DNA of 64,000 bases from an uncultured delta proteobacterium. Lineage in GTDB: Bacteria; Desulfobacterota; Desulfomonilia; UBA1062. Positions 12,701-40,671 of the stretch are shown piece after piece. Every line of letters begins with the position of its first letter. Position 1 is the stretch's first letter. A model generated the notes under the pieces. That model ran no database searches. It was not told the DNA's origin and saw only the letters and a list, made by a program, of their open reading frames with translations. Made by a program: the position numbers and the translations under genes. The stretch spans positions 443,722-507,721 of the forward strand of contig CAWCTR010000014.1 in the NCBI GenBank assembly GCA_963798485.1, in the 5' to 3' direction.

Positions 12701-14176
12701 CGTGTTGCCCGAGAGGAGCTTTGTAGTATCATAGGCGCCGATTGCATAATTGACGCCGCCCCCTGAAAAATCGACGTTTGACCCCTTCTTGGCAATGATG
12801 TCGCCGTTTGCCACGTTGATGGTGATAGCGCCACCCTTGGTGCTCTGGTCCTGGGCCGACACAGGCATGGTTGTGATGTTGCCGGAGGTGTCGCCTATGG
12901 AAGTCCCGGTCTGGGCATTGAAGCTGACATTCTGGCCCAGGAGAACGCCGTCCTTCTGACCAGTGTCGTCCTTGAGCTCTACACTGTTGAGCTGTGCCTG
13001 GATGAGATTTGCACCTGCAGGCTTGTCCTCGGTTACCCCTTTGGCGTCGATGGTGCTGCCGGCATCCAGCAGGACACGGTCGGTGGCATTGAGGCTGATT
13101 ATGCCGTGCGGGGATGAAATAACCCCCTGGTGCCAGATGCTCTGCAGCTGAAGCCCCGGTTCATTTCTCAGACCGTCGATCGTTATGTGCCCCAGAGGCT
13201 GGAAGGAATTGTCCGCAGTCTCCGTGGAAGTGGATATTGGGCAGATGGTTTGGCTCGATGGGCCTGTTTCCACCTCTTCCGTAGCGCGCAGCTCGATCTT
13301 GCCGTCATTCTTGAGGGCAACGATGCACTTCACAAGCCCGTCCTGGTTCACCGCCCTGCCGAAGAGCCCTGCAGATCCCCCGTCGGCTTCGATGGTCCCG
13401 GTTTGGGAATTGGTGGTTAGGCCGCTATTTTTCCCTGTGTCGTATGAATTGATTTGTATATCCCCGTTATTGTCCGCTGACAGGGTAATATCCTGCCCTG
13501 CAGCAAGAACGATATGTCCCTCGGGTGAATTGATGGCTCCATAATTCTCCACCAGGGACCCGATCAGGTATACCGAGCCGAGCGCGTCTGTCTGGATCGT
13601 GCCCTGGTTCGAAACCACGCCCGTGGCATCGGTGTCCTGACCGGTGAAGTACAGTGTCCCCGATTCAAAATCCTTAAGCGACAGCATGAGGGAAGAGGCG
13701 ATGAGCGAATGTACATTGACCTTGGAGCCCGGGCCGAAGAGGATGCCGTTCTGGTTGATAAGGTATATCTTCCCGTCTGAAGTCAGGTTGCCGTAGATCT
13801 GGGAAGGGTTGCTGTCATTGATGTAATTCAAGAGGGACCAGTAGGTCTTTCCCTGCTGGTCAAAGACGACCGAGGCCTTGGACCCGATGTCGAATGAATC
13901 CCATTGGATAACGGCATTCTGATCCGTCTGGTGGATAGTGAGCGTATTGTTGGCAGCAGCAGGGATTGCCGCATTGGTAACGGCGCCTGGACTTGTGCTG
14001 ACCACAGGCAGTTGGGTGGCGGCAGGTGTCTTCAAGGGAGCCGCCAAATTCCCGTAGAACCCCGGGATTGTCGGCCCTGCAGCATAGGTGAATGCAGGAA
14101 AGAAGACCTGGCAGACGACCTGGATGGCGGTCACAATCCGTATTACCTTTCTCAAGCGCCTGTTCACTCTCATCAT
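3761..14176 (-). CDS. Large two-partner-secretion exoprotein (TpsA, filamentous haemagglutinin family, C-terminal DUF3739-like; PdtA-like)
   Basis: 3471 aa; signal peptide; TPS domain (WDSFDIG, SQIYG, LINQNGILFG); beta-helix repeats; C-terminal GGDILIWSDKGDINAGRGSK and GIIDAGEAGI; adjacent TpsB. Confidence 0.92.
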   Translation of the reverse strand: MMRVNRRLRKVIRIVTAIQVVCQVFFPAFTYAAGPTIPGFYGNLAAPLKTPAATQLPVVSTSPGAVTNAAIPAAANNTLTIHQTDQNAVIQWDSFDIGSKASVVFDQQGKTYWSLLNYINDSNPSQIYGNLTSDGKIYLINQNGILFGPGSKVNVHSLIASSLMLSLKDFESGTLYFTGQDTDATGVVSNQGTIQTDALGSVYLIGSLVENYGAINSPEGHIVLAAGQDITLSADNNGDIQINSYDTGKNSGLTTNSQTGTIEADGGSAGLFGRAVNQDGLVKCIVALKNDGKIELRATEEVETGPSSQTICPISTSTETADNSFQPLGHITIDGLRNEPGLQLQSIWHQGVISSPHGIISLNATDRVLLDAGSTIDAKGVTEDKPAGANLIQAQLNSVELKDDTGQKDGVLLGQNVSFNAQTGTSIGDTSGNITTMPVSAQDQSTKGGAITINVANGDIIAKKGSNVDFSGGGVNYAIGAYDTTKLLSGNTVYDIGSAPESITYDKVLGNYQQVYNRFGITETYSGIYFGGGSSIKDYATGFSQGDDAGTLTLIAPHIAFEGTMKGSAVPGIFQTQASDPLNTSGNSKVLAGSNMEPSGGTLIMGSDYTLRDGAISDIQAADHKLGDVVISQDFTRLPDDFGVDSKSNPYPVERQGVSYLSPDTLNNALLKTIQINSNTVVTLERGADLTLCPGGEIDIKARSIEDFAGIRAPSGSIKFTLEENQTYLKGLTNFDTEEVNDNPDYRDIRQQIYIGGTLDVSGLSIDNSQTGSMDTGLRPTGNTTGGTISLQDKTEEGKGVLITKDARVDVSGGYAIAQNGTITGGNAGKLSIQGSALVLDGDIRGYSLAGSNGGTIELHAPDIAVTDSPLDTLDKDKYKPGTVNLWEHRLDDTGFTQVALYSLHDLKFGSDDDPVILKPSLVKMITPTPAGGNGGVDNYNAMEEASSGELKQKGLFTIDPMYLGSSSISLNAGQPLDIPLQKPTSSSSNIIDLSATIDIPEKSSIQSAPGGAITLNAPRIEIAGSLSSPAGTITAVSNESSGTFLGDPDSEVQGLHIASTAVISAAGYNMQNLKAPAKGLETTMTPVNAGVVDLEAKNSNTDHYGDLTIDKGATIDVSGSQPTPYTITKNDGTISSINIASDPGTVKLSSYGELDNKGTLMAGARLDGLKGGTLIISKTNDVDPVTGNLNVTTDDINGYVSSGFDDITLASRFSLDISRTQADDITDTAIARALTLDAPVISGTQDISLKAPMITLTNSYYPYQPSENTSTGQETAPAAPAGSLALSGDFIDVTGSVKLEGFKDVGLTATHDIRLSDTRYSTPLNHDSTQQPTVIDGSLQIPGDLTLTADRIYPTTRSAFSIDALGYTDDKGDILYGTVTTKPGQGITEGPILSAGGSLTIDARNIDHGGAIYAPMGAITLGNPDTNNTDKIYLDTGSTLSTKGQGLVLYGTLDANATSWTVPDKIDPSNTQLAQTATVPDKAISISAADEVIVKQGATIDTSGGGSIFSYVFQPGIMGSTDPLQQSAQYIIVPGLTLPGNAVKLNGAAGLPSGTYTLVSSKDHEEYAFLPGAYVISDLGVITTPGSFTSSTEGYPLTQGYQTIQGTSVLSPLAHTYSIRPASDVLKQGGYGTVNQGGYQAMELVGGDAGSISISGPTTVISGSIASQALAGTGYKSGSLTLASEDNEVVKSPVLLPEDFTYDSTVSSAAPDYDGKCTVSAEGLNSSGIGEITVGDITKTKTVDLQNGAVLTANKVSLNAADSITLASGSGIEATGTGGAASLNTYNGNITISQGASVHATDTINIQAGSLDLQGTCKVDNGALNLTSQRIFVTPDGFQSAQTGGLYLSDKLTGFQGVSSLSLKGTQDVVFEGAVDLETGTELDIDAPRIVHDHAAGDSSLVKMGSKTITLKNTSIADPDNPDPNSDAGNTDTALLTVSADQMSIGHGDMIMNGFGSVGIQCANDLTTMGKGSLSVDSLNNQAPDAVMNITAGRITTSFYRDPPTDTTDQGPYEAPQFSIDAGARPLAINGQKDYTLAANRALTPGGTLEITARSIDDAGIIEAPSATVKLTATGSDAADGITLENGSQILAQGTVQAAVNGTQVYTPGGAVALASGGGGFTGQAGSLIDVSAYKDGQGVYHGDAGSVVISTPNGNAALATTLNGIAGDAGLAGTFGLDANSINGGGGDVDLGALSKGLKGFTESISIRDRTENLKVNAGDTLSAKSVELTADTGILTIAGNIDAAGAQGGSVEINAGKIDLAPTGAIYANAQGTGTGRAGGEVRLATTGNSSNQDLQNDLTMEKGSLIDVSGSPQLTDNNGNVTTAAGTGGQVYLRADRTGIDTSNPGGTDVSMDLAGTVKGASRVVAEAVKVYKDTDNDYVTDPDTGAVNVVINANDIGYSGKYYQDTNKFMNSAAASGVKERLVSSLDLSGSDPDSFHLVPGIEIQSQGDITLSSTWDLSQSNKTKIGNKTVTWNWRFGGEPGMLTLRAGGNLNINQNITDHPTVFTSLTADTKMDSWGITLAAGADLASADTMAVISAPDTGDLNIGSKLVYTENAPLRFASGRDTIMQAYAGTTASYMINGSMKYNLATFDGDIKGEVGRDLLLTGSTQIQKGGAIQSAAGAIDLTVNGDVVMGTDGAIRTTGYMEPSPHYAYSSYWRFGNGGGINLKVGGDVKGGINPNAWDTGLSAYEVDDQGNIIVDADGNMTTPTWVASYADTNGLLQSTRGIATMGGGDLSIRTGGDFFAQAGTFGLNGESDLKIVSDNDINGRFLVKDGVCELNAMGNIGTDQQKMASTNNQNMAVEAFDTDVRLTAQGDIMLGSIVNPNLADPRLPTSGGLNDVFSYTEDAKVRITSIQGDVTITGKAGPYYNGDSTSTTNAQEMLPPTLEVEAGRDIDILQDLYLAPSLTGNLSMAAGRDISGAYTVGSGTGLTYCEAKIEMSDFDPQQVYGTAMPISLSIETSIDEGTGKPRYTTISTENTKAQVIAGDISRSASRDLIHEADHTSITIDAGNDIHDLRLYLPKMAQIEAGNDIRDTYIQGQNLHKNDVSVISAGHDIVMSTVDASGYGTGFLYGGPGTLIVQAGNSIDLGATQGIVSEGNYFELYSSQLGNQGCNLIVASGLDPATHPLDPAGVDQFFSQIKQAGIDYSTKLKDDPKGALDIVAETDKNIIEPFIGTVDTGSTATQGTDTTLAKGDIRMISSQITAKGTNSNISILSTGTMDVGRSDLTSDESTGIKTWKGGNIDIFSSKDVDVLQSRVMTLYGGDILIWSDKGDINAGRGSKTAVGRGGSDWTWDEDSGQLTQEYLPAATGSGIRTVTYSINDQTPSPEPGDAYIFAPAGIIDAGEAGIAAENLYIGAQQVRNTQNIQVSGVSVGVPLTNTNAGSLTALSGTSSLNESSQLSEEMSGISSSAAKSSAAAEESYVPKWVKVMVIGFGDDEQGQDNSGQGNDDQAKKKAKNQDKDK

Positions 14177-14189
14177 GGCTCATTCCCTC

Positions 14190-15917
14190 CTAGAACTGCC
14201 CTTTGACCAGGAAATGCAGTATCCGGTTGTTCTTGTCTGTCTGGTCCGTCTTCCTCAAGGCAAAGGCATAATCGGTCTCAAACTGGAAATATCTGGTCAG
14301 GCTCCCCCGCAGGCCTAGGCCGGTCCCGTAGATGCCCGCGCTTCTGTCCTGCTGGGGCAGCGGATCGATGGTGGTGAGCAGGGCAGCATCGCAAAAGAGG
14401 TACGGCGTCAGGTATGTAGTGCCCTGATCCGATCCTGAGGAAATATATGAAGTCAGCTTCGAGTATCCGGGTATCTTCAGCATCTTCATCAGATCCGGGG
14501 CTCGCAGCTCTATGGTGCCGTGCAGGGCGTTGTCGCCTGCCTCCTCACTTTCCTTGTATCCCCGGACACTCTCCATGCCGCCTGCCGTATACTGCTCATT
14601 GCTGATGAGCGGCTGGCCGCTCATCTGGCCGTCGACCTTGAGGAACAGGCTCGCATCTTTCGGCAGAGCCAGGTCGCGTTCCACGCCGAGCTTCGTGATG
14701 AAGTAATCGGCCCGCGCCATGTAGCGCTTGTCTTCGAACTGGCCCTCGCGGGTGCTGAACCCCCTGAAGCAGGTGCTCATGCCGGCCTGGAACCTGGTTG
14801 CCCCTAATGAATCGGGCAGGTTCGAATTGTACTGGACGTTAAACGGCAGATAAGTGACCGGCGTCTTGATACCGCTCGGAGAGTCCTTCGTGCCCTGGGT
14901 CTCTCTCATGTGCTTGTAGTCAACGCCAAATGATATGCTGTGCGAGTAGATCTTGTAGAAAGGGAGCGGCACTGCATACTGGAGCCCGTAGATGTCGCCT
15001 TTGCCGTTCACCTGGAAGCCTTCTCCGAATGCGGTCTGGCTGTCGGAGATCACCCCGTATACAGCCAGTATGTTGTCTTCGTTCCAGGGTGCCGGCAGCA
15101 CATAGGAGGCGGCAAAGGCCTTCACCTCGTCTGTTTCCTGTGGTGACATCTGGTACTGGAGGCTGATGCTGTGGCTGCTCTGCCAGAGATTGTCATAGTG
15201 AATGACGCCGTTCAATCTCAGGTCGCTCGTGTCGTGCGTGGAACGGTTGTTCAGCTCGATGCTGCCGTGCAGGGGAAAATAGTCCGTGGCACGCAACTCG
15301 ACGTCCGTTGTCCCGAGCTCCTTGCCGGGCATGAGGATGGGTTCTATCTTGAGGTCGGAGGCGCTGTTCGCCTTGTTCATTTCCTTCTGGACTTCAGGCA
15401 CATAAAGGAGCTCGCCCCTCCTGAACGCCGGGAGCATTTCCAGGATCTTTTCCTTGGTATGGTAACGGTTCCCGGTAACCCTGACATCTCCGATCTTGCT
15501 CTCGATGACCTCCAATGTCACTACACCCTCCTGCACATCCTGTGGGGGTATGTTCACAAGGACCGTGGGATACCCATCGTTGTGGTAGAGTTTTTCAAGG
15601 TATTTCCTCGCCTCCTCGACATCTTTAGAGGTCTTGTTCTGTCCTGTGTAGAAGTTGAGGCCTTCGATAATCCTGTCATAGTCCAGCAGCGTGTTGCCCT
15701 TTACGATATAACCCTTGATCTCAAAGGCCGTCTCTTCCTCCTGTGCCGTATACCCGTCCCGGAACATGACAAGCAGAGTGAATACCACCACCACCAGGAT
15801 CCACATGGTCTCCATGAACAACCCTGATTCTTCATCCTGTCTCTTATTGCCGTTACCAGCTGGATCCATGTCGGCATAACCATACCTCTGATGCTTCTGA
15901 GATTTTATCTCCTTCAT
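14190..15917 (-). CDS. TpsB (ShlB/FhaC/HecB) outer-membrane transporter
   Basis: POTRA region (FEIKGYIVKGNTLL, IPPQDVQEGVVTLEV), SVRGY motif, C-terminal Phe; start could be a later ATG. Confidence 0.92.
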   Translation of the reverse strand: MKEIKSQKHQRYGYADMDPAGNGNKRQDEESGLFMETMWILVVVVFTLLVMFRDGYTAQEEETAFEIKGYIVKGNTLLDYDRIIEGLNFYTGQNKTSKDVEEARKYLEKLYHNDGYPTVLVNIPPQDVQEGVVTLEVIESKIGDVRVTGNRYHTKEKILEMLPAFRRGELLYVPEVQKEMNKANSASDLKIEPILMPGKELGTTDVELRATDYFPLHGSIELNNRSTHDTSDLRLNGVIHYDNLWQSSHSISLQYQMSPQETDEVKAFAASYVLPAPWNEDNILAVYGVISDSQTAFGEGFQVNGKGDIYGLQYAVPLPFYKIYSHSISFGVDYKHMRETQGTKDSPSGIKTPVTYLPFNVQYNSNLPDSLGATRFQAGMSTCFRGFSTREGQFEDKRYMARADYFITKLGVERDLALPKDASLFLKVDGQMSGQPLISNEQYTAGGMESVRGYKESEEAGDNALHGTIELRAPDLMKMLKIPGYSKLTSYISSGSDQGTTYLTPYLFCDAALLTTIDPLPQQDRSAGIYGTGLGLRGSLTRYFQFETDYAFALRKTDQTDKNNRILHFLVKGQF

Positions 15918-18146: not shown

Positions 18147-19376
18147 CTACTGGCGGACCGGGTATGTTAAATCGGTGGTCTTCGTCACGCTCATCTCGCT
18201 GCTGGTTGCCCACCAGGTGTTCTCGGAGGCAGGCAGGTTGGCTGGATTGGCTGCGAAGTTGACCAGGTCATTGACCAGACCGTTCATTGTTGTACCCAGG
18301 TTGTTCGGCCAGTACAGCTCCTGTGCTGACCAGAAGTCATACTGTCCCTCTTTGATATGGGTCCTGTCGCCGGTGACACCCATATAGGGCAGCCGCGTGG
18401 CGCCGGTAAGGACCTGATCGGAGTCGGCATAACCAATAGCGCCTGACACTGTGGAGACGCAGGTCATCATCTGGCCGGTGCCGTCATTGAAATATGTCAC
18501 AGGGGACAATCCGGCAAGATAGAGCGGGTCGGTGGGAAGGACCTCGGTGGTCACCAGGGAGTAATCGCCCCTCATGACGGCCGCATCAAGTGTGGCAACC
18601 GTGCCCGAGCCTGCATGCCTCATGCACACGACGATCGGCGTCGATGCCGTAGTGGTGTCCAGCTGGTTCCAGTTGGTAACCTGTCCGGAGAAAATCTGAG
18701 TGGCCATGAGCCTGCTCATGTTGGTAATGTTGGCCAATTTGGTGTCGCTGCTGTTCTTGAAGAAGGAAAAGGGAACGACCAGGGGTGATGCGTTGTAGTA
18801 CGTTGCCGGCATGCTCAGGCCCGAGACGATACGATCGACCTGGGAACCGCCTGCAGGGCCGTTGGCCAGCCCGTGGCTCTCCTGGTTGAATGTCTCTGCC
18901 TTCACATCGGAAGCAGCTACGTTGATGGGCACGCACAGGTTGGCGGTTACGGTGTGCGCAGACCAGCTGGCGGTTGCCTGATTTGCCATCTGGCGCTGGG
19001 CGTTGTTTGTACAACCTGCAGTTGCGAAATCGTTCAGACCCTGAACGGCATCGACGCCGTCATAGGATGCCTTGGAAGAATAACGCAAAACGAGCGTGTC
19101 ATGGGTGCCGCTGATGCCGCTGCCCGATACACCGCCGAAGGCCGTGTTGCCGGCGCATACCGCGATGCCGTGCTTGTTGTCGGAAGAATGGGCCGTGTAG
19201 ATATCGCCCGATGCGCAGCCCTTGGAGGCGAGGAACGCGGCGTCGGATGCGGTCCAGAAATTGTATTCTGCCGAGGCGCCGTACATGTTGATTTCGTAGC
19301 TTGCAGCATTTGCCATGCCGCCGATCGCCAGCATTGACACACCAAGGATCGCTGATTTCATATATTTATTAAACAT
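18147..19376 (-). CDS. Exported PstS/DING-like substrate-binding protein
   Basis: Start ATG 19376 (AGGAGA RBS); signal peptide ANA-A; N-terminal YGAS, IFSGQVTNWNQL, CMRHAGSGT, GAIGY and GQYDFW, typical of the phosphate-binding PBP fold; six Cys. Confidence 0.75.
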   Translation of the reverse strand: MFNKYMKSAILGVSMLAIGGMANAASYEINMYGASAEYNFWTASDAAFLASKGCASGDIYTAHSSDNKHGIAVCAGNTAFGGVSGSGISGTHDTLVLRYSSKASYDGVDAVQGLNDFATAGCTNNAQRQMANQATASWSAHTVTANLCVPINVAASDVKAETFNQESHGLANGPAGGSQVDRIVSGLSMPATYYNASPLVVPFSFFKNSSDTKLANITNMSRLMATQIFSGQVTNWNQLDTTTASTPIVVCMRHAGSGTVATLDAAVMRGDYSLVTTEVLPTDPLYLAGLSPVTYFNDGTGQMMTCVSTVSGAIGYADSDQVLTGATRLPYMGVTGDRTHIKEGQYDFWSAQELYWPNNLGTTMNGLVNDLVNFAANPANLPASENTWWATSSEMSVTKTTDLTYPVRQ

Positions 19377-19424
19377 AGTGTATTCTCCTTTTTTTAGTAT
19401 ATTCATTCGGTTCAGTATGATTGG

Positions 19425-20198
19425 TTACGCGGCCGTCTCTGCGCCCTTCTTTTTCAGACCCACAAGACCAAGCAGCCCGGACCCGAAGAGCAGTATGCTC
19501 GCCGGGATCGGTGTGGCGGCAGTCGATTCGGCGACCGTGCTGCCGTTTGCATTGAGGGTGAGTATACCGCTGTAGGGGGTGCCGTTTGCGCCGGGAGCTG
19601 CGGAGACCAGGTTGAAGTGGTAGAGGTACATAGTTACGGAACCACCATTATCGAGAGCAGCAAGGCTGGCTTCGCCGAGTGCACTGGCTGCCGTATTAAG
19701 TCCTCCATAGTAGCCTGGGGCGGTTCCATTCGAATCCATCTTCTTTACATATGAATTCACATTGCTTGGACTGGCATCCACGATCTGATTTGTGGTGCCG
19801 CCAAGTTGGGTGGCGTAGTATGTGTTGACAGTAGAGCCGTAGGCAGTACTAAAGTTAGTCCTTGCGTTAGGATTGATTACCGGGGTTGTAGTCGCCGTGG
19901 TTGCGAAGTACTCCTGGTAGGTTGAACCGCTGTAGGCAAAGAACCCGACTTTCAGATTCGACCAGCTGGATGCCTGGAGTGCGCTGAGGTTGATGCTGTC
20001 CGCACCGGCAAGGGTCAACGAGCTTGCGATGGTGTCAAGGTTCAGGGTGGCGAGATTGCCGAGATCGATGGCGCGTTCAGCCGTTGTTCCGTTGTACACG
20101 ACCTCAATGAGATCGTTGTTCGAAAAATAGGCAAAAGCCTGTGAAGAAAGTGCTGTCATGAGCACAACTGCTAGTATGGTTATGAAACTGGATTTCAT
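19425..20198 (-). CDS. PEP-CTERM-type (VPLPA/TPIPA) surface protein
   Basis: Signal peptide AFA-Y; Ser/Thr/Asn-rich body; C-terminal TPIPASILLFGSGLLGLVGLKKK. Confidence 0.88.
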   Translation of the reverse strand: MKSSFITILAVVLMTALSSQAFAYFSNNDLIEVVYNGTTAERAIDLGNLATLNLDTIASSLTLAGADSINLSALQASSWSNLKVGFFAYSGSTYQEYFATTATTTPVINPNARTNFSTAYGSTVNTYYATQLGGTTNQIVDASPSNVNSYVKKMDSNGTAPGYYGGLNTAASALGEASLAALDNGGSVTMYLYHFNLVSAAPGANGTPYSGILTLNANGSTVAESTAATPIPASILLFGSGLLGLVGLKKKGAETAA

Positions 20199-20370
20199 GT
20201 TTTTTACCTCCTCTGTTTTTTAGTGATGCCTGGTGTTTCTTTAAGTATGTTGCCGCCGAGGGATTCTTTATTTTATTTTGACTTGCCTCTCCTTGCCCTG
20301 ATCACCCCCTTTCTTTCGGCTTCCGGCCGTACGCACTGTGTGTGCGGACAGAGTTAGGCCGTTCGTTTAA

Positions 20371-20515
20371 GAGGGCTTCCTGTTCCTTACTGTACGTATA
20401 TTAAGGAATGATGGCGCTCGGTAAATTCAGAGCCGAAGAACTTCGATTCATTCCCCTTAGCTCATTCCTCATTGTGATTCTAAAAACTGATCAACGTAAG
20501 TCAGCAAAGTACCCT
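20371..20515 (-). ncRNA. Candidate structured 5' leader motif, copy 1
   Basis: AGGGUACUUUGCUG (20515-20502) and CAGGAAGCCCUC (20382-20371) can pair with each other; both blocks recur identically at 40349-40419. Confidence 0.55.
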
Positions 20516-20553
20516 GTATGTATTTAATTGTGAGACGGGTTGTACCACGGGTA

Positions 20554-20592
20554 TGTGAACGGAGTATGAATGAACAATGAATTTTTTGTTAA
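20554..20592 (-). promoter_or_regulatory. Pho-box-like array upstream of the PEP-CTERM/TPS/TonB operon
   Basis: TTAACA-TTCATT-TTCATA-TTCACA at 11-bp period, then GTGG-TACAAC. Confidence 0.75.
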
Positions 20593-20726
20593 TATTGAAA
20601 ATAGTTTGTGGTCATGTATGTCATTGATTTTATATTTGTTTATTAACGTTGTCACGTCAGGTCCAGACCTTCGAGGCATGAGTGAAATGTGATACTCGGC
20701 TGAATCGTTTCACTCGGCGCATTTTG

Positions 20727-21581
20727 CTAGGTGCGCTTTGACTGGCCCGCAAGGGGGACACTCACCGTGAGAATCTCGCCGCTCCTCTCCACCTCGAAGG
20801 AGAGAGCAGAAGCGCCCTTCAGGCTCCTCGTTGCCAGCGCAGCATCACCCATGGAATTTACCGGAATCCCGTTGATGGACCTGATAATGTCCCCCGGTCT
20901 CATGCCGAACTGGTAAAGCCTCGAGCCGACCCCCACACCAGACACCCTGTAACCCTGGGATCGTGTCTGTTCCTGGGCCTGGGCAATGGCAGGGGCAATG
21001 GCGGACATACCCAGGGCAGACTGTGCTGAAACTTTAGCCCCCTGATTGGTTTTCAAGGCGCCTCCAGAAGCAATTTGGGCACCCCCCTGATTGGTATCTC
21101 TGAAATCCATGACAAGCATCTGGTTCCTGCCCCCTGTGCTTACTATGATCTGATCGCGGAATATGGCCTGTATGACCCCGCCTTTCAGCAGGTCACCGAT
21201 CTTGTAGATGCGCTGCTCTTTGTTCTCCTCGATAATTGCACGGGCTAGATCCTTCGGACCGGCTATGGTACCTTTAAGAACCAGCCCCATCGACAAAAAC
21301 GTGCCCATGGGCATGGACTGGTCCGTGGTCGCAGATCCTGTCCTGGCAACTTTGAACAAGTCCCTCTCGAAGATGACTTCATAGGCTGATTTTGTCCTGA
21401 TGGGCTTGTTCTGCATTTCTTTGGTGATATTAAGTGCCTTCTGAGGAACAGGAGGTTTATAGAGGATATGGCCTGCTATTGATGTCACAAGACCGGCTGC
21501 AACCCATGTAAACATACCAATAAAAAACACTGCAGCTATCCATTTATATTTATATAGTGTCTTGTTATAGTGTGACTTCAT
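20727..21581 (-). CDS. gspC: Type II secretion protein C-like (GspC, with PDZ domain)
   Basis: N-terminal TM, IFERDLF, LVLKGTIAG..ARAIIEE..QRIYKIGD (HR domain), GMRPGDIIRSING (PDZ). Confidence 0.8.
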   Translation of the reverse strand: MKSHYNKTLYKYKWIAAVFFIGMFTWVAAGLVTSIAGHILYKPPVPQKALNITKEMQNKPIRTKSAYEVIFERDLFKVARTGSATTDQSMPMGTFLSMGLVLKGTIAGPKDLARAIIEENKEQRIYKIGDLLKGGVIQAIFRDQIIVSTGGRNQMLVMDFRDTNQGGAQIASGGALKTNQGAKVSAQSALGMSAIAPAIAQAQEQTRSQGYRVSGVGVGSRLYQFGMRPGDIIRSINGIPVNSMGDAALATRSLKGASALSFEVERSGEILTVSVPLAGQSKRT

Positions 21582-21943: not shown

Positions 21944-22618
21944 ATGGGTAAACGTATAGCTGTGGTGGATGACGAACCTGATATTATACACTTGGTCACT
22001 ATTCACCTCAAGAAGGCCGGGTACAGCGTGGACAGCTTTCTCAACGGAAGCTCCCTGCTGAAGTCTCTCCCGACAAGCATTCCCGATCTCGTCATCCTCG
22101 ACCTCATGCTGCCTGATCTCGATGGGTTCGATGTGTGCAGGATGATGAAAAGTAACCAAAGCTACGAGTCCATCCCCATCATCATGCTTACGGCAAAGGG
22201 ACAAGAGGCCGACAAAGTGACCGGCCTGGAGCTCGGCGCAGACGACTACCTGACAAAACCGTTTTCTCCCCGCGAGCTCCTTGCGCGAGTCAAGGCCGTA
22301 CTCAGGAGGACATCCGCATCGAAACTGGCTCAAATAATCGTCGGCGACATCTCCATCGACCCGGAACGGTTCGAGGTCATGGTCAATGAGAAACCCGTGA
22401 CCCTGACACCTGTTGAGTTCAAGATCCTCCACCTGCTTGCACAGAACCCGGGAAAGGTCTTTTCAAGGGAGCGCATACTCGACCACCTCTGGGGTAACGA
22501 AAAGGCCGTGATCGACAGGACCGTGGACGTGCATATCAAAAACCTCAGGGACAAACTGGGCCCTGCAGGCGACCTTGTGAGAAACATCCGGGGCGTGGGG
22601 TATAAGATCCAGGCATGA
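21944..22618 (+). CDS. phoB: OmpR/PhoB-family response regulator
   Basis: VVDDE, LDLMLP, GADDYLTKPF, RTVDVHIKNLR..IRGVGY; pho context. Confidence 0.92.
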   Translation: MGKRIAVVDDEPDIIHLVTIHLKKAGYSVDSFLNGSSLLKSLPTSIPDLVILDLMLPDLDGFDVCRMMKSNQSYESIPIIMLTAKGQEADKVTGLELGADDYLTKPFSPRELLARVKAVLRRTSASKLAQIIVGDISIDPERFEVMVNEKPVTLTPVEFKILHLLAQNPGKVFSRERILDHLWGNEKAVIDRTVDVHIKNLRDKLGPAGDLVRNIRGVGYKIQA

Positions 22619-24333
22619 GGAGATCCATTTTTTTCAAAATGTTCATGGGATACCTGGTGATCATGATCGCCATGGCAGTCCTTATCCTCACCTTCACCTA
22701 TGAGATCGTCAAATCGCATTATGAGCAAACCATGTCAGATAACCTGAAGAATATCGCCATTCCATTGCGGCAGGTCATGACCCCATACCTGACACAGGGC
22801 AAGCCGGACCATCTGAATGCCGTGGTCGGTGAGTACGCGCGCGCGCTTGAACTCAGGATAACGGTTATTGACCCTGCAGGCAAGGTGCTTGCAGATTCCG
22901 AGAGGGACCCGGCCACACTCGAAAACCACCGGGACAGGCCTGAAATGGGCCAGGCCCTTGCCGGTAAAACCGGTCAAAGCATACGTTTCAGCACCACCCT
23001 CTGGCAGGACCTTCTCTATGTTGCGCTTCCTGTCGAGGCAGAGGGAAAGATAATCGGCGTACTCCGGCTGAGTACCCCGCTAACGCACATCAGCAACCTG
23101 CTGAAGACCCTGAGAATAAGGGAACTCCAACTGACACTCATAGTTATTGTTATTTCACTGCTCATTGCAGCGCTCATCTCTCACCGCTTGTCAACGCCCA
23201 TCCGGGAACTAAGCAAGGCGGCAAGAAGGGTTGCCTCCGGAGATCTCTCCGTGAGGGTATCCCCCAAGCCCCATGCAGACGATGAGATCAGGGACCTCAC
23301 TGAAGGTTTCAACGAGATGACTCAAAGGCTTGGACAGACCTTTGCGGAACTCAGCGGACGCAATGAAGAGCTTGAGAGTATCATATCATCCATGACCGAG
23401 GCCCTGCTCGTACTCGATGAAGAAGGAAAGGTCCGGCTTTTCAATGCAGGCGCCCAGAAGCTCATGCCTGCTGAAAATATCCTGGGCAGATATTACTGGG
23501 AGCTGCTCAGATCGACAAGGCTCAACACATTGCTTGAGGAGAGCTCTGAAAGGTCCATCTCCGACGAGGTGGAGCTTGCGGATAAATCTTTCCTGTGCAT
23601 TATTACACCCCTTGCTTCCAGGAAGGCAAAGGTCGTGCTTCTGCATGACATCACAGAATTGAAGCAGATAGAACGGGTGAAGAAAGACCTGGTGGTCAAT
23701 GTCTCCCATGAACTCAGGACCCCGCTCACTGCCATCAAGGGATTTACCGAGACACTCTTGGATGAGGCAGACCCCAAATCAATGGAATACCTCCGGATCA
23801 TCAAGCGCCATACGGACAGGCTCATCGCCATGGTTAGTGACCTGCTTACCCTTTCCGAGTTGGAGGAAAAACCGCAGCTCGTCATCGACGATGTAAACCT
23901 CCAAGAGCTTATTACCAATGTGCTGGCTATCTACGATCCCAGGATAAGGGCCAAGGGCCTGGGTCTCACTGCCGATATCAGCCCCATCACCCTCAAGGGT
24001 GATGCATTCAAGCTTGAACAGCTCCTCACAAACCTCATCGACAACGCCCTTAAATACACGGAGAAGGGACAGATCTCCGTGGGTACCGAGGTGAGGGAGG
24101 ACAACGCCATTATCACCATAAATGATACAGGGATAGGGATACCGAAAGAAGACCTGGGAAGGGTATTCGAGCGTTTCTACGTAGTGGACAAATCACGTTC
24201 AAGAAGTATGGGCGGCACCGGGCTCGGGCTTTCCATTGCGAAACATATTGCTACGCTCCACGCCGGGTCTATCGAGGTGGCAAGCTCCCCATACACGGGC
24301 AGCACCTTTACCGTTATTATCCCTATAAAATGA
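22615..24333 (+). CDS. phoR: PhoR-type sensor kinase (sensor, HAMP, PAS, HisKA, HATPase)
   Basis: ENHRDRPE sensor motif, NVSHELRTPLT, FERFYVVDKSRSR, GGTGLGLSI; ATGA overlap with phoB. Confidence 0.92.
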   Translation: MRRSIFFKMFMGYLVIMIAMAVLILTFTYEIVKSHYEQTMSDNLKNIAIPLRQVMTPYLTQGKPDHLNAVVGEYARALELRITVIDPAGKVLADSERDPATLENHRDRPEMGQALAGKTGQSIRFSTTLWQDLLYVALPVEAEGKIIGVLRLSTPLTHISNLLKTLRIRELQLTLIVIVISLLIAALISHRLSTPIRELSKAARRVASGDLSVRVSPKPHADDEIRDLTEGFNEMTQRLGQTFAELSGRNEELESIISSMTEALLVLDEEGKVRLFNAGAQKLMPAENILGRYYWELLRSTRLNTLLEESSERSISDEVELADKSFLCIITPLASRKAKVVLLHDITELKQIERVKKDLVVNVSHELRTPLTAIKGFTETLLDEADPKSMEYLRIIKRHTDRLIAMVSDLLTLSELEEKPQLVIDDVNLQELITNVLAIYDPRIRAKGLGLTADISPITLKGDAFKLEQLLTNLIDNALKYTEKGQISVGTEVREDNAIITINDTGIGIPKEDLGRVFERFYVVDKSRSRSMGGTGLGLSIAKHIATLHAGSIEVASSPYTGSTFTVIIPIK

Positions 24334-26165: not shown

Positions 26166-26204
26166 TTCATGAAAAATTAACACACTCTTTATTCATAATT
26201 CACA
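26166..26204 (+). promoter_or_regulatory. Pho-box-like array upstream of pstS
   Basis: TTCATG-TTAACA-TTTATT-TTCACA at 11-bp period; TATAAT at 26218-26223. Confidence 0.8.
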
Positions 26205-26243
26205 TTTGAGTCATATCTATAATAAAAACAGTGGAGGAATTTC

Positions 26244-27077
26244 ATGAAATCAAATTTGTCCTCAAAGATAACATGGTACATTATGGCGGTCCTGATCATT
26301 GCTATACCTGCCTCAATAGTCCATGCAGCGGGAAATACCATTATCATAAAGGGTTCGACCACGGTACTGCCTGTAGCGCAAGCGGCAGCAGAGGTCTTCA
26401 TGGAGAAGAATCCCGGCGTCAACATCTCGGTGCAGGGCGGCGGCTCCGGTGTGGGCATTGCCTCGCTCCTGGACAAGACCACGGATATCGCCGACTCATC
26501 CCGCAAGATCAAACCGGAGGAAATAGACAAGGCAAAGGCCGCAGGGGTCAACCCCAACGAGATCTCCATAGCGATCGACGGCATCGCAGTCATCGTGCAT
26601 CCGACCAATCCCGTCAAGGCCCTTACCAAGACCCAGATCAGGGACATCTTTACCGGCAAGATCACCAACTGGTCCGAGGTCGGGGGCAAGAGTGCCAAGA
26701 TCGTTGCCGTGAACCGCGATACCAGTAGTGGTACTTTCGAGGCATTCGAGACGCTTGCCCTGAACCACGAGAAGGTCCGCCCCGATGCGCTGACAACGGC
26801 GTCCAACCAGGCCGTGGCCCAGACCGTCGCCCAGACCCCGAACGCCATCGGCTATGTGGGGCATGGGTTTTTAAGCCCCAAGGTAAAGGCAGTGACCGTT
26901 GACAAGATCGAATGCACCAAGCAGACCATCCAGTCCGAGAAGTACCCGCTCTCCAGGTACCTGTACGTGTATACCAACGGCAAGCCGTCCGGGAACGTCC
27001 AGAAGTTCATCGGCTTTCTCCTGAGCGCCCAAGGACAGAAGCTCGTAGTGGACGAGGGGTTCGTCGAGATCAAGTAA
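26244..27077 (+). CDS. pstS: Phosphate ABC transporter substrate-binding protein
   Basis: KGSTTVLP, GGGSGVG, RDTSSGT, YPLSRYLY. Confidence 0.95.
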   Translation: MKSNLSSKITWYIMAVLIIAIPASIVHAAGNTIIIKGSTTVLPVAQAAAEVFMEKNPGVNISVQGGGSGVGIASLLDKTTDIADSSRKIKPEEIDKAKAAGVNPNEISIAIDGIAVIVHPTNPVKALTKTQIRDIFTGKITNWSEVGGKSAKIVAVNRDTSSGTFEAFETLALNHEKVRPDALTTASNQAVAQTVAQTPNAIGYVGHGFLSPKVKAVTVDKIECTKQTIQSEKYPLSRYLYVYTNGKPSGNVQKFIGFLLSAQGQKLVVDEGFVEIK

Positions 27078-27105
27078 CAATCTATTGTAAGGTGATGCCG
27101 ACTTG

Positions 27106-27138
27106 AGAGGAGGAGGGGCTCCCTGCCCTTTCTCCTCT
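27106..27138 (+). terminator. Hairpin after pstS
   Basis: 14-bp stem AGAGGAGGAGGGGC/GCCCTTTCTCCTCT with G-U pairs. Confidence 0.6.
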
Positions 27139-27151
27139 ATGAAAGCTGCCC

Positions 27152-27190
27152 TTAACGGATAATTCACCCGATCTTCATTGCATCTTAACA
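27152..27190 (+). promoter_or_regulatory. Pho-box-like array upstream of pstC
   Basis: TTAACG-TTCACC-TTCATT-TTAACA at 11-bp period. Confidence 0.78.
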
Positions 27191-27229
27191 ATTCTTCCCT
27201 ACTGATGAGTGTTGAAAGAGGAAACGGAC

Positions 27230-28129
27230 ATGGACAGGAAATCCCTGCGAAGAGTCAAAGAAGGCATCTACGAGTGGATATTCGCGACCCTGGCCTTTGC
27301 CTCGCTCGTTTTCCTCGTGGGCATCATCATCACGCTCCTCAGGGAGTCTTTGCCGGTCTTTGCCAGGATCAAGCTGAGCTCATTTCTCTTCGGGCAAGCG
27401 TGGTATCCCACCGCTGATCCACCGGAAATGGGGATATGGCCTCTGATCACGGCATCATTCACGGTGACGGTTGGTGCCATGGTGGTCTGTGTCCCCATCG
27501 GCATCGGCACGGCACTGTTCATTCATGAACTGGCAAGCCATTCCCAGCGGGCATTCCTGAAACCTGTCATCGAGTTGCTGGCTGGCATCCCTTCCATTGT
27601 GTACGGCTTTTTCGGCATGGTCATAGTCGCCCCGTTTCTTCAGGACCTTCTCGGCATACCCACAGGCCTGTGCGCCTTTACGGCAAGCCTGGTGCTCGGC
27701 ATCATGGCAACGCCCACGGTGGCGAGCCTTGCAGAAGACGCCTTGAGCTTTGTGCCCAGGAGCTTCAGGGAGGCGTCACTGGCGCTCGGCGCCAACCGGT
27801 GGCAGACGCTGACCAAGGTTGTCATGCCTGCTGCGGGTTCCGGCATCTCCACAGCCATAATCTTGGGCATGGGCAGGGCCGTCGGCGAGACCATGACCGT
27901 GCTCATGGTGGCGGGTGGTGCGGCCATGGTGCCCAAGAGCATCTTCGACCCGGTGAGGCCCATGACATCCACCATTGCAGCCGAGATGGGCGAGGCCGTG
28001 CTGGGGAGCCTCCATTATCACGCGCTCTTCGCCATCGGGCTGATCCTCTTTTTGATCACGCTCGGGGTAAATATCTGTGCGGAGATCATCAGCAGACGGT
28101 ACAGGCTGAAGCTGGGGCTCGGCAGATGA
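27230..28129 (+). CDS. pstC: Phosphate ABC transporter permease PstC
   Basis: [28 protein letters not shown]; start ATG 27230 with GAGG RBS. Confidence 0.95.
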   Translation: MDRKSLRRVKEGIYEWIFATLAFASLVFLVGIIITLLRESLPVFARIKLSSFLFGQAWYPTADPPEMGIWPLITASFTVTVGAMVVCVPIGIGTALFIHELASHSQRAFLKPVIELLAGIPSIVYGFFGMVIVAPFLQDLLGIPTGLCAFTASLVLGIMATPTVASLAEDALSFVPRSFREASLALGANRWQTLTKVVMPAAGSGISTAIILGMGRAVGETMTVLMVAGGAAMVPKSIFDPVRPMTSTIAAEMGEAVLGSLHYHALFAIGLILFLITLGVNICAEIISRRYRLKLGLGR

Positions 28130-29055
28130 CGACACAAAACGGCATTACGGAGAATCTCACCGGCACCATGCCGAAGCGGACCTCCGGAAAAAAGAAGCTC
28201 ATCAGGATGAGCGATGTCACGCAAGCCCTTGGGTTTCTCTTTCTGATACTCTGCATTCTTTTCGCGCTCTTTTTTCTCGGATCCATCATCTACTTTATCA
28301 CTTCCCGGGGAATAGCCGTCATCTCGTGGGAGTTCCTTACTTCTGTACCCAGAAAGGCCATGACACAGGGCGGCGTAGCACCTGCGATTGTGGGGACATT
28401 CTACCTCACCCTGGGCGCCATCGCATTCTCCCTGCCGCTCGGGCTTGCCAGTGCCATCTATCTGTGCGAGTACAGCCCGGGTAATGTTGCGGTGAACATA
28501 ATCCGCCTTTCCATCAACAACCTGGCAGGCATCCCTTCCGTAGTGTTCGGGCTTTTCGGGTTTGCGGTATTCGTGAAGATATTCGGCTTCGGTGTGTGTA
28601 TCCTCTCGGGCAGCCTGACGCTCGGCATCATGGCCTTGCCGGGTATCATTTCCGCATCCCAGGAGGCGATCCTTGCGGTACCCCAGTCATACAAAGAGGC
28701 ATCCCTCGCCCTGGGAGCAACACACTGGCAGACCATCAAGAAGGTGGTCCTGCCGACGGCCCTGCCCGGGATTCTCACCGGTGTCATCTTGAATATCGGC
28801 AGGGTAGCCGGGGAGACTGCGCCCATCCTGTTCACTGCAGCCACCTTTTATACGCGGGACTATCCTAATTCGGTTTTTTCCGAGGTCATGGCACTGCCCT
28901 ATCACATCTATGCGCTCATGACCGAGGGCACGCACCCTGAGGTGCAGACGGCAATCGCATACGGTTGCGCGCTCATCCTGCTTGCACTCGTGCTTGCCAT
29001 ATCGGCATGCGCCATCATCTTAAGACAGAAACAGAGGATTACCTATGGCTCCTGA
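28126..29055 (+). CDS. pstA: Phosphate ABC transporter permease PstA
   Basis: [22 protein letters not shown]; start set at ATG 28126 overlapping the pstC stop. Confidence 0.93.
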
Positions 29056-29806
29056 GGTGAAGATCAGCGCACAGGACATCAATTTCTTCTACGGGAAGAC
29101 CAGGGCTCTGAAGAATATGTCCCTGGATATCTTTGAAAAACATGTAACTGCCTTCATCGGTCCTTCCGGCTGCGGCAAGTCCACCTTTATCAGGCTCATA
29201 AACCGCATGAACGATCTCATACCCGGCTCCAGGGTGGAAGGCCGGATCATGATGGACGGGTTTGACATCAACCACGTAAAGACCGATGTGGTGGACCTGA
29301 GGCGTCGTGTAGGTATGGTGTTCCAGAAGCCGAACCCCTTTCCCAAGACCATCTTTGAAAACATGGCATACGGGCTCACCATAGGCGGAATAAAAGATAA
29401 AGGATTTATTGAGAACAGGGTAGTCAACTCGCTCAAAAAGGCTGCCCTTTTTGATGATGTGAAAGACCGTCTGAACGACAGTGCACTCATGCTTTCGGGC
29501 GGTCAGCAGCAGAGGTTGTGCATCGCCCGGTGCCTGGTGGTGGAGCCCGAGGTGATCCTCTTCGACGAACCCTGCGCCAGCCTGGACCCCATCTCCACCC
29601 GCAAGATAGAGGAGCTCCTCCTGGAGCTCAAGAAAGACTACACCATCGTGATCGTCACCCATAACATGCAACAGGCAGCCCGCGTCTCGGACTATACGGC
29701 ATTCATGTACCTGGGCGAGCTCATCGAGTACGACCGCACCGAGAAGATCTTCACCGTACCCAAAGAGCGGATGACAGAAGAATACTTAAGTGGTAAATTC
29801 GGATAA
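29045..29806 (+). CDS. pstB: Phosphate ABC transporter ATPase PstB
   Basis: [41 protein letters not shown]. Confidence 0.96.
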
Positions 29807-29815
29807 GGAGCATTC

Positions 29816-38975: not shown

Positions 38976-39024
38976 CGCTAAGTCACCTCTCAATGATTAT
39001 CTGAAAGGAATTCTACCCATTAAA

Positions 39025-39531: not shown

Positions 39532-40263
39532 TCATATGGTAGGAAGAGTGGTCTTTCTTCTCAAACCCAACAACCCGAGCAGACCAGTACCTAAGAGCAG
39601 AAAGGCTGCGGGGACGGGGGTCGGGGTGAGCGACTCTATATCCTGCAGATGGCCTGATGTGTCTGTCGTGTAAATCTTGATTACATTGTATCTTGATGCA
39701 TACGAACTCAAATCCCCAAGAGGTATCTGGCTTTCAAAGAACTCCTTCATGGTAAAGAGATATTCATAACCGGCATAGGTAGTGCTATCGTAGGTGACCG
39801 GTTGCCCTATCTGGTCCCAGACAGCGAGCTGCAGGGCAACGCCGGTAGCCAACGAGTCCCTTCCCGGATAGGTGTACGGTTTAGAAGCAGCATAATGGTC
39901 GATAAGCCATGCCGCCCTGAGGAGACCGCTGTCATCACCTGTTATTGCAGAGGTTTCTGCATGATAAGATCCGGGAATCGGCAATGAGGCGGTCCTATTC
40001 ACACAATAGCCGTAATACGTAGGGGAACCCGGTCCGCTGCCGAAATTGTAGTAGATCTCACCTGTCAAAAATTTAGAATAATCGATGTTCTGGAAATCAG
40101 ACAGGTAGATGCTTCCACTGTAGGCTGACGCCGTCATCGGCGACATCAGAATTGAAAAACTCAGCACCACGCCATAAAAAAATACCCTGTTTATCATCAA
40201 TGCCTTTATTCTAGATTTACCTGTTGAAATCAGAGATGAATGAATCCCGGGCACCCTTTCCAT
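39532..40263 (-). CDS. PEP-CTERM-type (PVPAA) surface protein
   Basis: Signal peptide ASA-Y; YGYCV..RAAWL..ALQLAVW body; C-terminal TPVPAAFLLLGTGLLGLLGLRRK; start at 40263 (GAGGAGG RBS) or 40197. Confidence 0.85.
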   Translation of the reverse strand: MERVPGIHSSLISTGKSRIKALMINRVFFYGVVLSFSILMSPMTASAYSGSIYLSDFQNIDYSKFLTGEIYYNFGSGPGSPTYYGYCVNRTASLPIPGSYHAETSAITGDDSGLLRAAWLIDHYAASKPYTYPGRDSLATGVALQLAVWDQIGQPVTYDSTTYAGYEYLFTMKEFFESQIPLGDLSSYASRYNVIKIYTTDTSGHLQDIESLTPTPVPAAFLLLGTGLLGLLGLRRKTTLPTI

Positions 40264-40348
40264 AGCTTCCTCCTCACAAGAGTTTTTACCATTCCTCATG
40301 CTACGGGATAGGTTTCATCCGTGTTGCACACTGAGCCTTATGTCTTGT

Positions 40349-40419
40349 GAGGGCTTCCTGGTTCTGTTAAATGCCGTTTTTTCTGGGAAGGTTCCCTTTG
40401 AAAGCCAGCAAAGTACCCT
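40349..40419 (-). ncRNA. Candidate structured 5' leader motif, copy 2
   Basis: Same AGGGUACUUUGCUG and CAGGAAGCCCUC blocks as 20371-20515, with a shorter, different interior. Confidence 0.55.
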
Positions 40420-40444
40420 ATAAGCGCACTGTCTAACATAGAGA

Positions 40445-40483
40445 TGTTAATATTTCATGAACGGGCTGTTAATTCTTAATGAA
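40445..40483 (-). promoter_or_regulatory. Pho-box-like array upstream of the second PEP-CTERM gene
   Basis: TTCATT-TTAACA-TTCATG-TTAACA at 11-bp period. Confidence 0.78.
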
Positions 40484-40671
40484 TGTATGAGAACGGTTGG
40501 TGGGTGGGTGAGGTCTTGCTTTTTGCTTTTTAAAACATCGGGGTATGTGCATTTCTTGTCTCAGGGGCAATCTTGTCATGTAAAGCACTTGGGCCGGGTC
40601 TCAACATTTGACACTGTTTGTTGATTGTTGAGACCAAGCCCTGGAGTCACCCTTTGTCAACAGCTCAGCTG

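Follow-up and report, generated by a model that had tools for sequence, protein, structure and literature searches.

A candidate bipartite leader RNA, probably a cis-acting switch, on operons with PhoB-type promoters in Desulfobacterota

The two leaders and their shared blocks

The window analysed here is a 64,000-nt stretch of contig CAWCTR010000014.1 (assembly GCA_963798485.1) from an uncultured delta proteobacterium of the Desulfobacterota. On its minus strand, two genes for secreted proteins (gene 1 and gene 2) are preceded by 5′ leaders that lie 20 kb apart and share two short blocks, with the sequence AGGGTACTTTGCTG (block 1) and CAGGAAGCCCTC (block 2) in both. The original prediction, made from the sequence alone, had read this pair of blocks as an RNA leader motif common to the two genes, which it took to be PEP-CTERM genes. 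Both blocks were found exactly where it had placed them, the interiors between them measured the same 119 nt (copy 1) and 45 nt (copy 2), and the pairing that it gave, i.e., AGGG/CCCU, UA bulge, CUUU/GAAG, G bulge and CUG/CAG, is right as written. Hereafter, G, C and L denote genomes, contigs and loci, respectively, and G000 is the 4.3-Mb source genome of the window. The blocks and the genes behind them are as follows.

20502..20515, minus strand: block 1 of copy 1, 5′ strand of helix P1 (AGGG-UA-CUUU-G-CUG); covariance-model match of 51.9 bits
20383..20501, minus strand: variable interior of copy 1, 119 nt; in folds, CUUAC (20500-20496) closes with GUAAG (20390-20386)
20371..20382, minus strand: block 2 of copy 1, 3′ strand of P1, whose GCCCUC end is able to pair with the G-rich box at 20301-20312
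19425..20198, minus strand: gene 1, secreted PepA-like protein with a PEP-CTERM-like tail ("family A")
18147..19406, minus strand: second gene of the operon, PstS-family-like binding protein (Pfam PBP_like_2; sub-threshold TIGR02136)
40406..40419, minus strand: block 1 of copy 2; covariance-model match of 70.1 bits
40361..40405, minus strand: variable interior of copy 2, 45 nt, with a GGGA/UCCC hairpin in the fold
40349..40360, minus strand: block 2 of copy 2
39532..40263, minus strand: gene 2, PEP-CTERM protein (TIGR02595 at 39553-39621, i.e., G000:C14:483274-483342, 17.7 bits against a cut-off of 16)

At up to two mismatches, block 1 has two matches in the window (both copies) against 0.27 expected, and two were reached in 5 of 100 shuffles. 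At up to one mismatch, block 2 has three (the two exact ones and 43553-43564) against 0.30 expected, and none of 100 shuffles reached three. A whole-genome scan for block 1 followed on the same strand, within 600 nt, by block 2, with up to two mismatches in each, returned four matches: the two window copies, one on contig C7 and a pair on C16. The C7 match (G000:C7:393026-393100, minus strand) is a third true copy, in which block 2 reads CAGAAAGCCCTC, turning a U-G pair into U-A; it precedes two PEP-CTERM-like genes, the second of which encodes a protein 73% identical to that of gene 1. The C16 pair, with two mismatches in each block and in a coding-like region, was judged to be a chance match. 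Separately, three tandem perfect hairpins, AGGGUAC-UUUG-GUACCCU, spaced by about 37 nt, were observed on contig C4 (G000:C4:140400-140450; L004/L007); their first 11 nt are common with block 1, and a gene encoding a Tat-like signal peptide follows about 330 nt further downstream.

Distribution of the element

A first covariance model (R1), built from the first four copies, was run on 52 genomes of the family and found three copies in G000, one in G013 and nothing else. A second model (R2) was run on 151 genomes sampled across the phylum and then on further sets. Among the 151 genomes, its matches were significant in G000, G081 and G119; a weak match in a coding region of G087 (E 0.035) was counted as noise. 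Weak matches in G221, G235 and G239 (E 0.37-0.49), from the further sets, were treated likewise. One to three copies each are carried by G222, G223, G224, G119, G081, G228, G291, G498, G368 and G405; G228 is a carrier among eight genomes of the order of G119, and G222 is the only one among 41 genomes of its own family. Additionally, a collection scan with block 1 plus RCTT as the pattern retrieved 53 metagenome and 27 genome stretches. These 80 loci hold 20 complete copies and two (L102 and L114) that are cut off by contig ends and were excluded from the copy counts; the remainder are chance 18-mers, mostly coding.

The original prediction had made its case depend on further copies and on compensatory changes. 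As to the first, 37 copies were found, in 12 genomes of several Desulfobacterota families (the source genome and 11 others) and on metagenome contigs. The distribution is sporadic, yet it extends across several families; block 1 is almost unchanged across them, and the proteins encoded behind the element are approximately 30-45% identical, as read from comparisons. One-mismatch matches to block 1 in 61 relatives occurred at the rate of the reversed-pattern control and were rejected, as were exact matches in L047 and L043, which lie in coding sequence without block 2.

Long forms like the window copies are found in L084, L095, L124, L125, L103/L136, L090, L118 and L149. In the compact forms, block 1 is followed by a hairpin of 4-8 bp, a linker of 2-3 nt and block 2, which continues into an intrinsic terminator. 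Compact forms are present in records labelled Desulfobulbus elongatus DSM 2908 (two copies; by this label, a cultured species) and uncultured Desulfobulbus, in a Desulfatiglandales metagenome-assembled genome (MAG), in Deltaproteobacteria MAGs and on metagenome contigs. In G119 (L171:1501-1747) and G228 (L176:1501-1800), two tandem copies about 200 nt apart stand directly after the small-protein gene described below, with a terminator in the first copy and none in the second.

A reading as a miniature inverted-repeat transposable element or other insertion was rejected: there is no target duplication, and the leader of the G013 orthologue is of similar length and diverged, not an empty site. 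In that orthologue of gene 2 (L068:1260-1500), the promoter boxes and a distal leader hairpin are kept, and the blocks are swapped for unrelated sequence of similar length.

Helix P1 and hairpin P2

We call the helix of the two blocks P1; over all copies its strands read NGGGUACUUUGCUG (block 1) and CAGRAAGCCC (block 2), and it encloses a variable hairpin, P2. Pairing statistics were taken from 37 aligned copies (36 distinct; L196, at 21 bits, was excluded), which give 430 pair cells, with 500 shuffles and slid partner strands as controls. As many as 92.8% of the cells pair, and no shuffle reached this pairing or the covariation score; with the partner strand slid, pairing falls to 27-61%. Twenty cells, involving three pairs, are changed on both sides, which was not reached by any of the shuffles either. 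The variation consists mostly of U-A/U-G changes, together with C-G and U-A swaps. At pair 10, U-A occurs 21 times, U-G 13 and C-G twice, both copies with C10 facing G; at pair 1, A-U occurs 10 times, C-G six, U-G five and U-A twice, all six C-starting copies facing G; pair 15 is G-C in 14 copies and A-U in five. Pair-preserving changes, some of them compensatory, are seen in P1, as the original prediction required, and we take the pairing evidence to be supportive rather than decisive. The fold is specific to the sense strand of the downstream genes, since on the opposite strand each of the many U-G pairs would become a C-A mismatch.

P2 is a hairpin of changing sequence in the compact copies (e.g., GCUUCAUC/GAUGAAGC, CUUGCC/GGCAAG and GUCC/GGAC). 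In the long copies it is closed by CUUAC/GUAAG-type pairs, found in L103, L118 and L090 as well as in copy 1. The gap between the two blocks ranges from 13 to 128 nt across copies, a spacing that suits RNA pairing better than a DNA site. The blocks might nevertheless work at the DNA level, as operators located at and after the promoter and recognised by the small protein or by some other regulator: block 1 adjoins PhoB-type boxes, and the predicted fold of the small protein is weakly, and non-significantly, like MADS-box DNA-binding cores (template modelling score 0.43-0.49, E 7-9). However, the blocks differ from each other by 2-nt and 1-nt insertions and so are not equivalent half-sites, the distance between them changes, the variation obeys RNA pairing, U-G included, and block 2 is fused to terminator stems. 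We consider operator sites highly improbable.

The original prediction recognised no known riboswitch here, and no Rfam 15 family matches the element. At the gathering threshold, the whole window gave only two group II intron matches, at 61919-62524; at E ≤ 10, the region 19900-20700 gave two noise rows (E 3.3 and 3.4), neither of them on the blocks; and 26 related loci gave nothing at the element. No published description of the leader element was found in searches of the literature outside subscription journals. From sequence comparison, it appears to be an uncatalogued conserved RNA element. A CsrA site was considered and rejected, as the GGA of block 2 is GAA in most copies.

Competing partners of block 2

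Whatever the architecture, the 3′ end of block 2 is also able to pair with a second, competing strand; this key feature is absent from the original prediction. In the compact copies, GCCC of block 2 is the base of the terminator stem, GCCCGGAUC...GAUCCGGGC, which is followed by U-runs; rho-independent terminators were recognised in these copies (11 folded, others read) and in neither window leader. For CCCUCACAAG of window copy 2, of the C7 copy and of L125, the partner is CUUGUGAGG, a stretch that includes the Shine-Dalgarno (SD) sequence, and in the G013 copy CCUC pairs with GGAGG a few bases downstream. In window copy 1 and L118, GCCCUC pairs with GGGGGU of a G-rich box, AAAGGGGGUGAU. The corresponding features of the window are listed below.

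20301..20312, minus strand: AAAGGGGGUGAU box, alternative block 2 partner in the minimum-energy fold
20196..20214, minus strand: SD sequence AGAGGAGG (20214-20207) and start codon of gene 1 (20198-20196)
40343..40353, minus strand: CCCUCACAAGA, the end of block 2 plus 6 nt, anti-SD strand of the alternative fold in the minimum-energy folds of copy 2 and the C7 copy
40261..40282, minus strand: CUCUUGUGAGGAGG (40282-40269), including the SD sequence, and start codon of gene 2 (40263-40261)

The AAAGGGGGUGAU box is complementary, with one G-U pair, to the 3′ end of the 16S rRNA of this genome (GGAUCACCUCCUUUCU). It stands downstream of the element in 12 of the 24 loci examined and occurs five times in G000, one occurrence being the antisense of the 16S gene end. 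It was also observed at G000:C14:343241 and G000:C8:199869 (both minus strand), and CAGGG...GAG follows it in three cases; the box at C14:343241 comes directly after a -10-like AT-rich stretch, ahead of another secreted-protein gene. A leader peptide was rejected, the frames from the GUG of the G-rich box not being conserved by eye.

In 11 leaders, folds with P1 enforced were 1.8-10.8 kcal/mol less stable than the free minimum; P1 would therefore need help to persist. It is a hallmark of riboswitches, as of protein-controlled attenuators, that one sensor domain is found on differing expression platforms. Here, the platforms share a strand with the sensor helix, since both the terminator stems and the SD-sequestering helix use block 2, and the architecture appears riboswitch- or antiterminator-like.

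Two other readings bear on the same structures. The compact unit from block 1 to the terminator could be an independent small RNA of about 80-95 nt, of the trans-acting Hfq type, with a 5′ seed for pairing with other messages; the window leaders would be derived forms of it. Its layout, seen in compact copies only, would fit: a free 5′ region leads into a small hairpin, after which come an A-rich linker and a terminator ending in a U-tail. Block 1 stays mostly unpaired in the minimum-energy folds, tandem copies occur, and a near-invariant 5′ end of about 14 nt is typical of seeds. Against this, the long forms without a terminator retain both blocks and their complementarity, and a terminator alone would not require block 2 to be as conserved as it is. 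A same-strand open reading frame (ORF) follows 60-350 nt downstream of every copy examined, although not all of these ORFs are plausible genes, and the complement of block 1 shows no excess in the genome (8 and 19 matches against 11 and 15 in the control). A small RNA is, in our opinion, unlikely. Alternatively, P1-P2 could be a passive 5′ structure, a stabilising or processing mark, whose overlap with terminator or SD sequence would be incidental. A 5′-terminal stem shields messages from 5′-end-dependent decay, and P1 would lie at the very 5′ end if transcription started near block 1 (by eye). Nevertheless, a passive stem needs no sequence conservation and block 1 is near-invariant across families; the competing partner of block 2 recurs in three forms; and in L199a about 45 nt separate block 1 from a Pho-type promoter upstream of it (by eye). 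We consider a passive structure decidedly unlikely.

PhoB-type promoters ahead of the element

Both leaders carry the same upstream boxes as the pstS promoter, a likeness in sequence that agrees with the Pho-box-like promoter of the original prediction.

20530..20592, minus strand: Pho-box-like array of copy 1, with 11-bp phased hexamers TTAACA, TTCATT, TTCATA and GTTCAC, then CCGTGGTAC and CCGTCTCAC
40445..40495, minus strand: Pho-box-like array of copy 2, including GTTCATGAAATATTAACA (40461-40444), near-identical to the pstS box
26166..26223, plus strand: pstS promoter (reference), with the same box TTCATGAAAAATTAACAC (26166-26183) and TATAAT

The box type common to pstS and the leaders is TTCAT-N6-TTAACA. 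A genome-wide scan for three TT[CA]A[CT][ATC] hexamers at an 11-bp phase returned 12 matches, compared with none in the reversed sequence that served as the control. All 12 belong to the Pho island described next, the copy 1 leader, the C7 leader or the small-protein gene, and two of them fall in the copy 1 array; the copy 2 array was detected by a looser window scan and not by this strict one. The 11-bp direct repeats, in common with hallmark Pho genes, are those of PhoB/PhoP-type Pho boxes, and the prediction from these boxes that the leaders stand behind PhoB-type promoters is well founded. Canonical TGTCAC repeats precede the G498 copy.

The window as a whole is a phosphate island, with phoB/phoR-like genes (21944-24333), a PhoU_div/PHO4 pair, pstSCAB-phoU (26244-30481) and genes for CYTH, exo/endo-phosphatase, Ppx, metallophosphoesterase, CHAD and Ppk (36837-38993) proteins. 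Further phased Pho-type arrays were observed at 27163 (between pstS and pstC), at 39101/39126 (a palindromic pair in the ppk-gene 2 interval), at 40991 (about 570 nt upstream of leader 2), at 51531 (before a 600-amino-acid gene at 51676) and at 21704 (before the T2SS-C/PDZ gene at 20727-21581).

Other promoter candidates were rejected. CTGACT-16-TAGAAT (20504..20477) has no counterpart in the other copies by eye, and TACTTT of block 1, as a -10 or -35 hexamer, lies 28 bp past the last box, too far for PhoB geometry (by eye). The sigma-54 motif TGGCACN5TTGCW, at up to two mismatches, was absent from 20516-20700 and 40420-40600, and the window as a whole holds 25 matches against 31 expected. A sigma-54/PrsR site of the kind known from PEP-CTERM genes was therefore also set aside, with no -24/-12 match near either leader; the enhancer motif itself was not searched for.

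An orphan small protein

A small gene often lies just upstream of the element. Its product, of 55-62 amino acids, contains ...FTGYIKVNFSQGSxGRIEKFEEILK. It precedes the element by 3 nt in G081, 6 nt in G228 (genome coordinates), 73 nt in G119 by genome coordinates (69 nt from the stop codon), and approximately 280-310 nt in G291 and G498, the full range being 3-307 nt. The G000 copy of the gene (C14:413458-413619) lies 30 kb before the window and is preceded by four phased Pho-type hexamers.

The protein is encoded in 12 of the 12 carriers, once in each except for two matches in G291. It was found in 3 of the 52 family genomes (G000, G013 and, as a weak match, G061) and in 3 of the 151 phylum genomes, G000, G081 and G119, the same three that have convincing RNA matches. 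It is also present in G222, G223, G224 and G228 (4 of 4), in 8 of 401 genomes and in 1 of 41 genomes. In the reverse test, G291, G498, G368 and G405, which were chosen by the protein alone, each hold one to three RNA matches; G061, with the weak protein match, holds none.

Relatives of the protein form at least 809 clusters, all unnamed or hypothetical. Its predicted fold is one helix and a beta-hairpin (predicted local distance difference test, pLDDT, 80.8). No Pfam family was found in the three proteins scanned or in 60 alignment members, the best being DUF2196 (10 of 60, E ≥ 0.026), and Foldseek gave no match to the PDB at E ≤ 0.001, the best VIA-align Z being 4.1. An identity with DUF2292/YezD was rejected, since PF10055 matches none of the 60 members at E ≤ 1; the sole trace of it comes from an Atlas neighbour cluster (score 0.79), 27% of whose members have PF10055. 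We infer that the small protein is the leading effector candidate. The NusG paralogue of G000 was rejected as a partner: it is unlinked to the loci and lies between a peptidase gene and an hflX-like gene, as read from ORF translations.

A proposed leader RNA switch

Taken together, we rank first, and consider fairly probable, that the element is a cis-acting leader RNA switch on Pho-driven operons with a small protein or a metabolite as effector. In operons with PhoB-type promoters, block 1 would presumably be transcribed as part of the 5′ leader RNA, where it and block 2 would be the two strands of the irregular helix P1 around the variable hairpin P2. Two pairings would then be open to the 3′ half of block 2 (GCCC/CCCUC), one with block 1 and the other with a strand further downstream, i.e., the 3′ arm of the terminator in compact copies, the SD region in copy 2 and the AAAGGGGGUGAU box in copy 1. 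With P1 formed, the terminator or sequestering helix would be blocked and the message completed or translated (the presumed ON state); with P1 unformed, the more stable alternative would prevail (OFF). Some factor would have to stabilise P1, and binding of the small protein to it would relieve termination or SD sequestration.

The effector of the same switch could instead be a small molecule, which would make it a true riboswitch, with the UA and G bulges of P1 and the P2 junction as the pocket and a signal related to phosphate status or surface-polymer synthesis. An almost invariant block 1 across families, with P2 and the platforms varying, is the pattern of a ligand core. One domain is found on transcriptional and translational platforms, and copies stand in tandem in G119 and G228 as well as in tandem ahead of c-di-GMP-I-type (cyclic di-GMP) aptamers in L154, L117, L106 and L100 and, by eye, L202, L205 and L196; tandem riboswitch arrangements are known. 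However, a single interrupted helix with about 12 pairs makes up the whole conserved core, little for a pocket that has to be selective; no genes for the biosynthesis or transport of a single metabolite recur downstream; and a dedicated small protein co-occurs with the element. We regard a true riboswitch as rather unlikely.

Several observations weigh against the leader RNA switch. The G013 orthologue of gene 2 retains the promoter and the 3′ leader without the blocks, which are dispensable there, and the second L176 copy is degenerate, with an uncompensated CCA for CUG. In P1, pair 1 is unpaired in 13 of the 36 distinct copies and pair 15 in 15 of them, single non-pairs occur at pairs 2, 7 and 14, and the covariation is modest, with block 1 near-invariant, 22 of the 37 aligned copies retrieved by a pattern that fixed block 1 and the alignment fitted to the model. 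Simple promoter scans are ambiguous: they place the start 18 nt upstream of block 1 in copy 2 and approximately 41 or 105 nt upstream in copy 1, where the promoter-like site at 20504..20477 would start transcription within the element. The three metatranscriptome runs listed from the same study each have a share of 0.00 for the stretch. The small protein has no detectable RNA-binding family or fold. Moreover, among the same 41 genomes, a full-length family-A gene is also found only in G222; because this cargo gene has the same distribution in that sample, the co-occurrence does not single out the small protein, and the association of protein and RNA may reflect one accessory gene cluster.

Genes behind the element

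The original prediction stated that both leaders precede PEP-CTERM genes. This holds for gene 2, which is above the PEP_CTERM cut-off; gene 1 reaches the cut-off of no sorting-domain model, its VPLPA-CTERM match scoring 16.5 bits where 25.35 are required, and L173 holds a relative of gene 1 that does pass this model, with 31.6 bits. As a mark of PEP-CTERM genes the element fails, since it is carried by one of the seven PEP_CTERM-model matches of G000, namely gene 2; two exosortase genes of G000 are above cut-off. The RNA-element reading of the original prediction is thus upheld in part: the sense-strand, RNA-level character of the element, its further copies and its pair changes stand, and its specificity for PEP-CTERM genes does not.

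Family-A relatives are encoded behind the element in L172, L173, L168, L165, L106, L117, L118, L103 and L095, and the order of a PepA-like gene and then a PstS-like gene is common to the window, L172, L173 and L168. Other genes behind the element encode alkaline-phosphatase-like proteins (L174 and L167), a WcaI-family glycosyltransferase (L169), an XrtM-like exosortase (L175), an S8 peptidase (G013) and unassigned secreted proteins. Leader 1 heads a minus-strand run of genes for PepA-like, PstS-like, FKBP-thioredoxin, TpsB/TpsA, ExbB-lectin fusion and TonB proteins.

Variant c-di-GMP-I aptamers were observed between the element and the PepA-like gene in L154/L168, L117, L106 and L100 and, by eye, in L202, L205 and L196. 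These aptamer-bearing leaders hold two regulatory RNA domains in tandem.

Comparison with known systems

In the ribonucleic antiterminator (RAT) systems, proteins of the BglG/LicT/SacY type bind a bulged helix that overlaps the 5′ arm of a terminator, and termination is averted once this helix is stabilised. The element resembles RAT in being a short, imperfect, bulged helix whose 3′ strand overlaps a terminator and which is present on several operons of one regulon. It differs in that there is no sequence likeness, the only trace being a bglG-cis-reg noise row (23.3 bits against 80), in being joined also to SD-sequestering platforms, and in its candidate partner, an orphan of 55-62 amino acids and not a PRD antiterminator. 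Dedicated proteins also act on leaders before terminators in TRAP, PyrR, HutP and the NusG paralogues LoaP and RfaH; in contrast to these, the small protein has no family or fold match to any of them. With ON-type riboswitches, the element shares the use of the 3′ strand of the sensor helix by the platform, two platform types and tandem copies, but its core is one interrupted helix and has no Rfam match. As for c-di-GMP-I aptamers, RF03167 (c-di-GMP-I-GGC) is above threshold in L154, L117 and L106, approximately 170-200 nt downstream of block 1, and L100 holds a sub-threshold RF03168 (c-di-GMP-I-UAU). These are, however, a separate downstream domain; the element itself gives no such match, and neither window leader holds such an aptamer.

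The regulation of exosortase/PEP-CTERM systems outside the Proteobacteria is, to our knowledge, largely unknown. Pho regulon control is usually described as purely transcriptional, via PhoR and PhoB. If correct, the leader RNA switch would add a post-initiation, RNA-level second gate to a subset of Pho-driven operons, among them those for surface PEP-CTERM proteins, an exosortase, a glycosyltransferase and alkaline phosphatases, and would link phosphate limitation to surface protein and polymer production; alternatively, the element would be the first riboswitch to report phosphate status. That either the orphan protein binding the bulged P1 or a phosphate-status riboswitch constitutes a new riboregulatory system of the Desulfobacterota is possible, and on balance we hold it to be doubtful. 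With it, annotators would gain a new RNA family, and the at least 809 clusters that are now hypothetical could be named.

For PEP-CTERM genes of proteobacteria, Haft et al. (2006; PMC1569441) describe an upstream site composed of a PrsR enhancer motif and a sigma-54 promoter. This is a DNA site, in which a 17-nt motif ending in TTTACA is separated by a spacer of about 63 nt from a -24/-12 promoter. The likeness lies in a conserved nucleotide element within a long non-coding region ahead of PEP-CTERM genes, and the difference in that the leaders studied here carry PhoB-type phased boxes and no sigma-54-like match nearby.

Other features of the window

Two further regions of the window were noted. 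At 3761-15917 (minus strand), within the gene run headed by leader 1, a two-partner secretion pair made up of a ShlB/FhaC-type transporter gene and a gene for a 3471-amino-acid TPS-domain protein is followed by the ExbB-lectin fusion and a TonB-like gene. At 61919-62524 (minus strand), the group II intron RNA domains match RF01999 with 104 bits and RF00029 with 64 bits.

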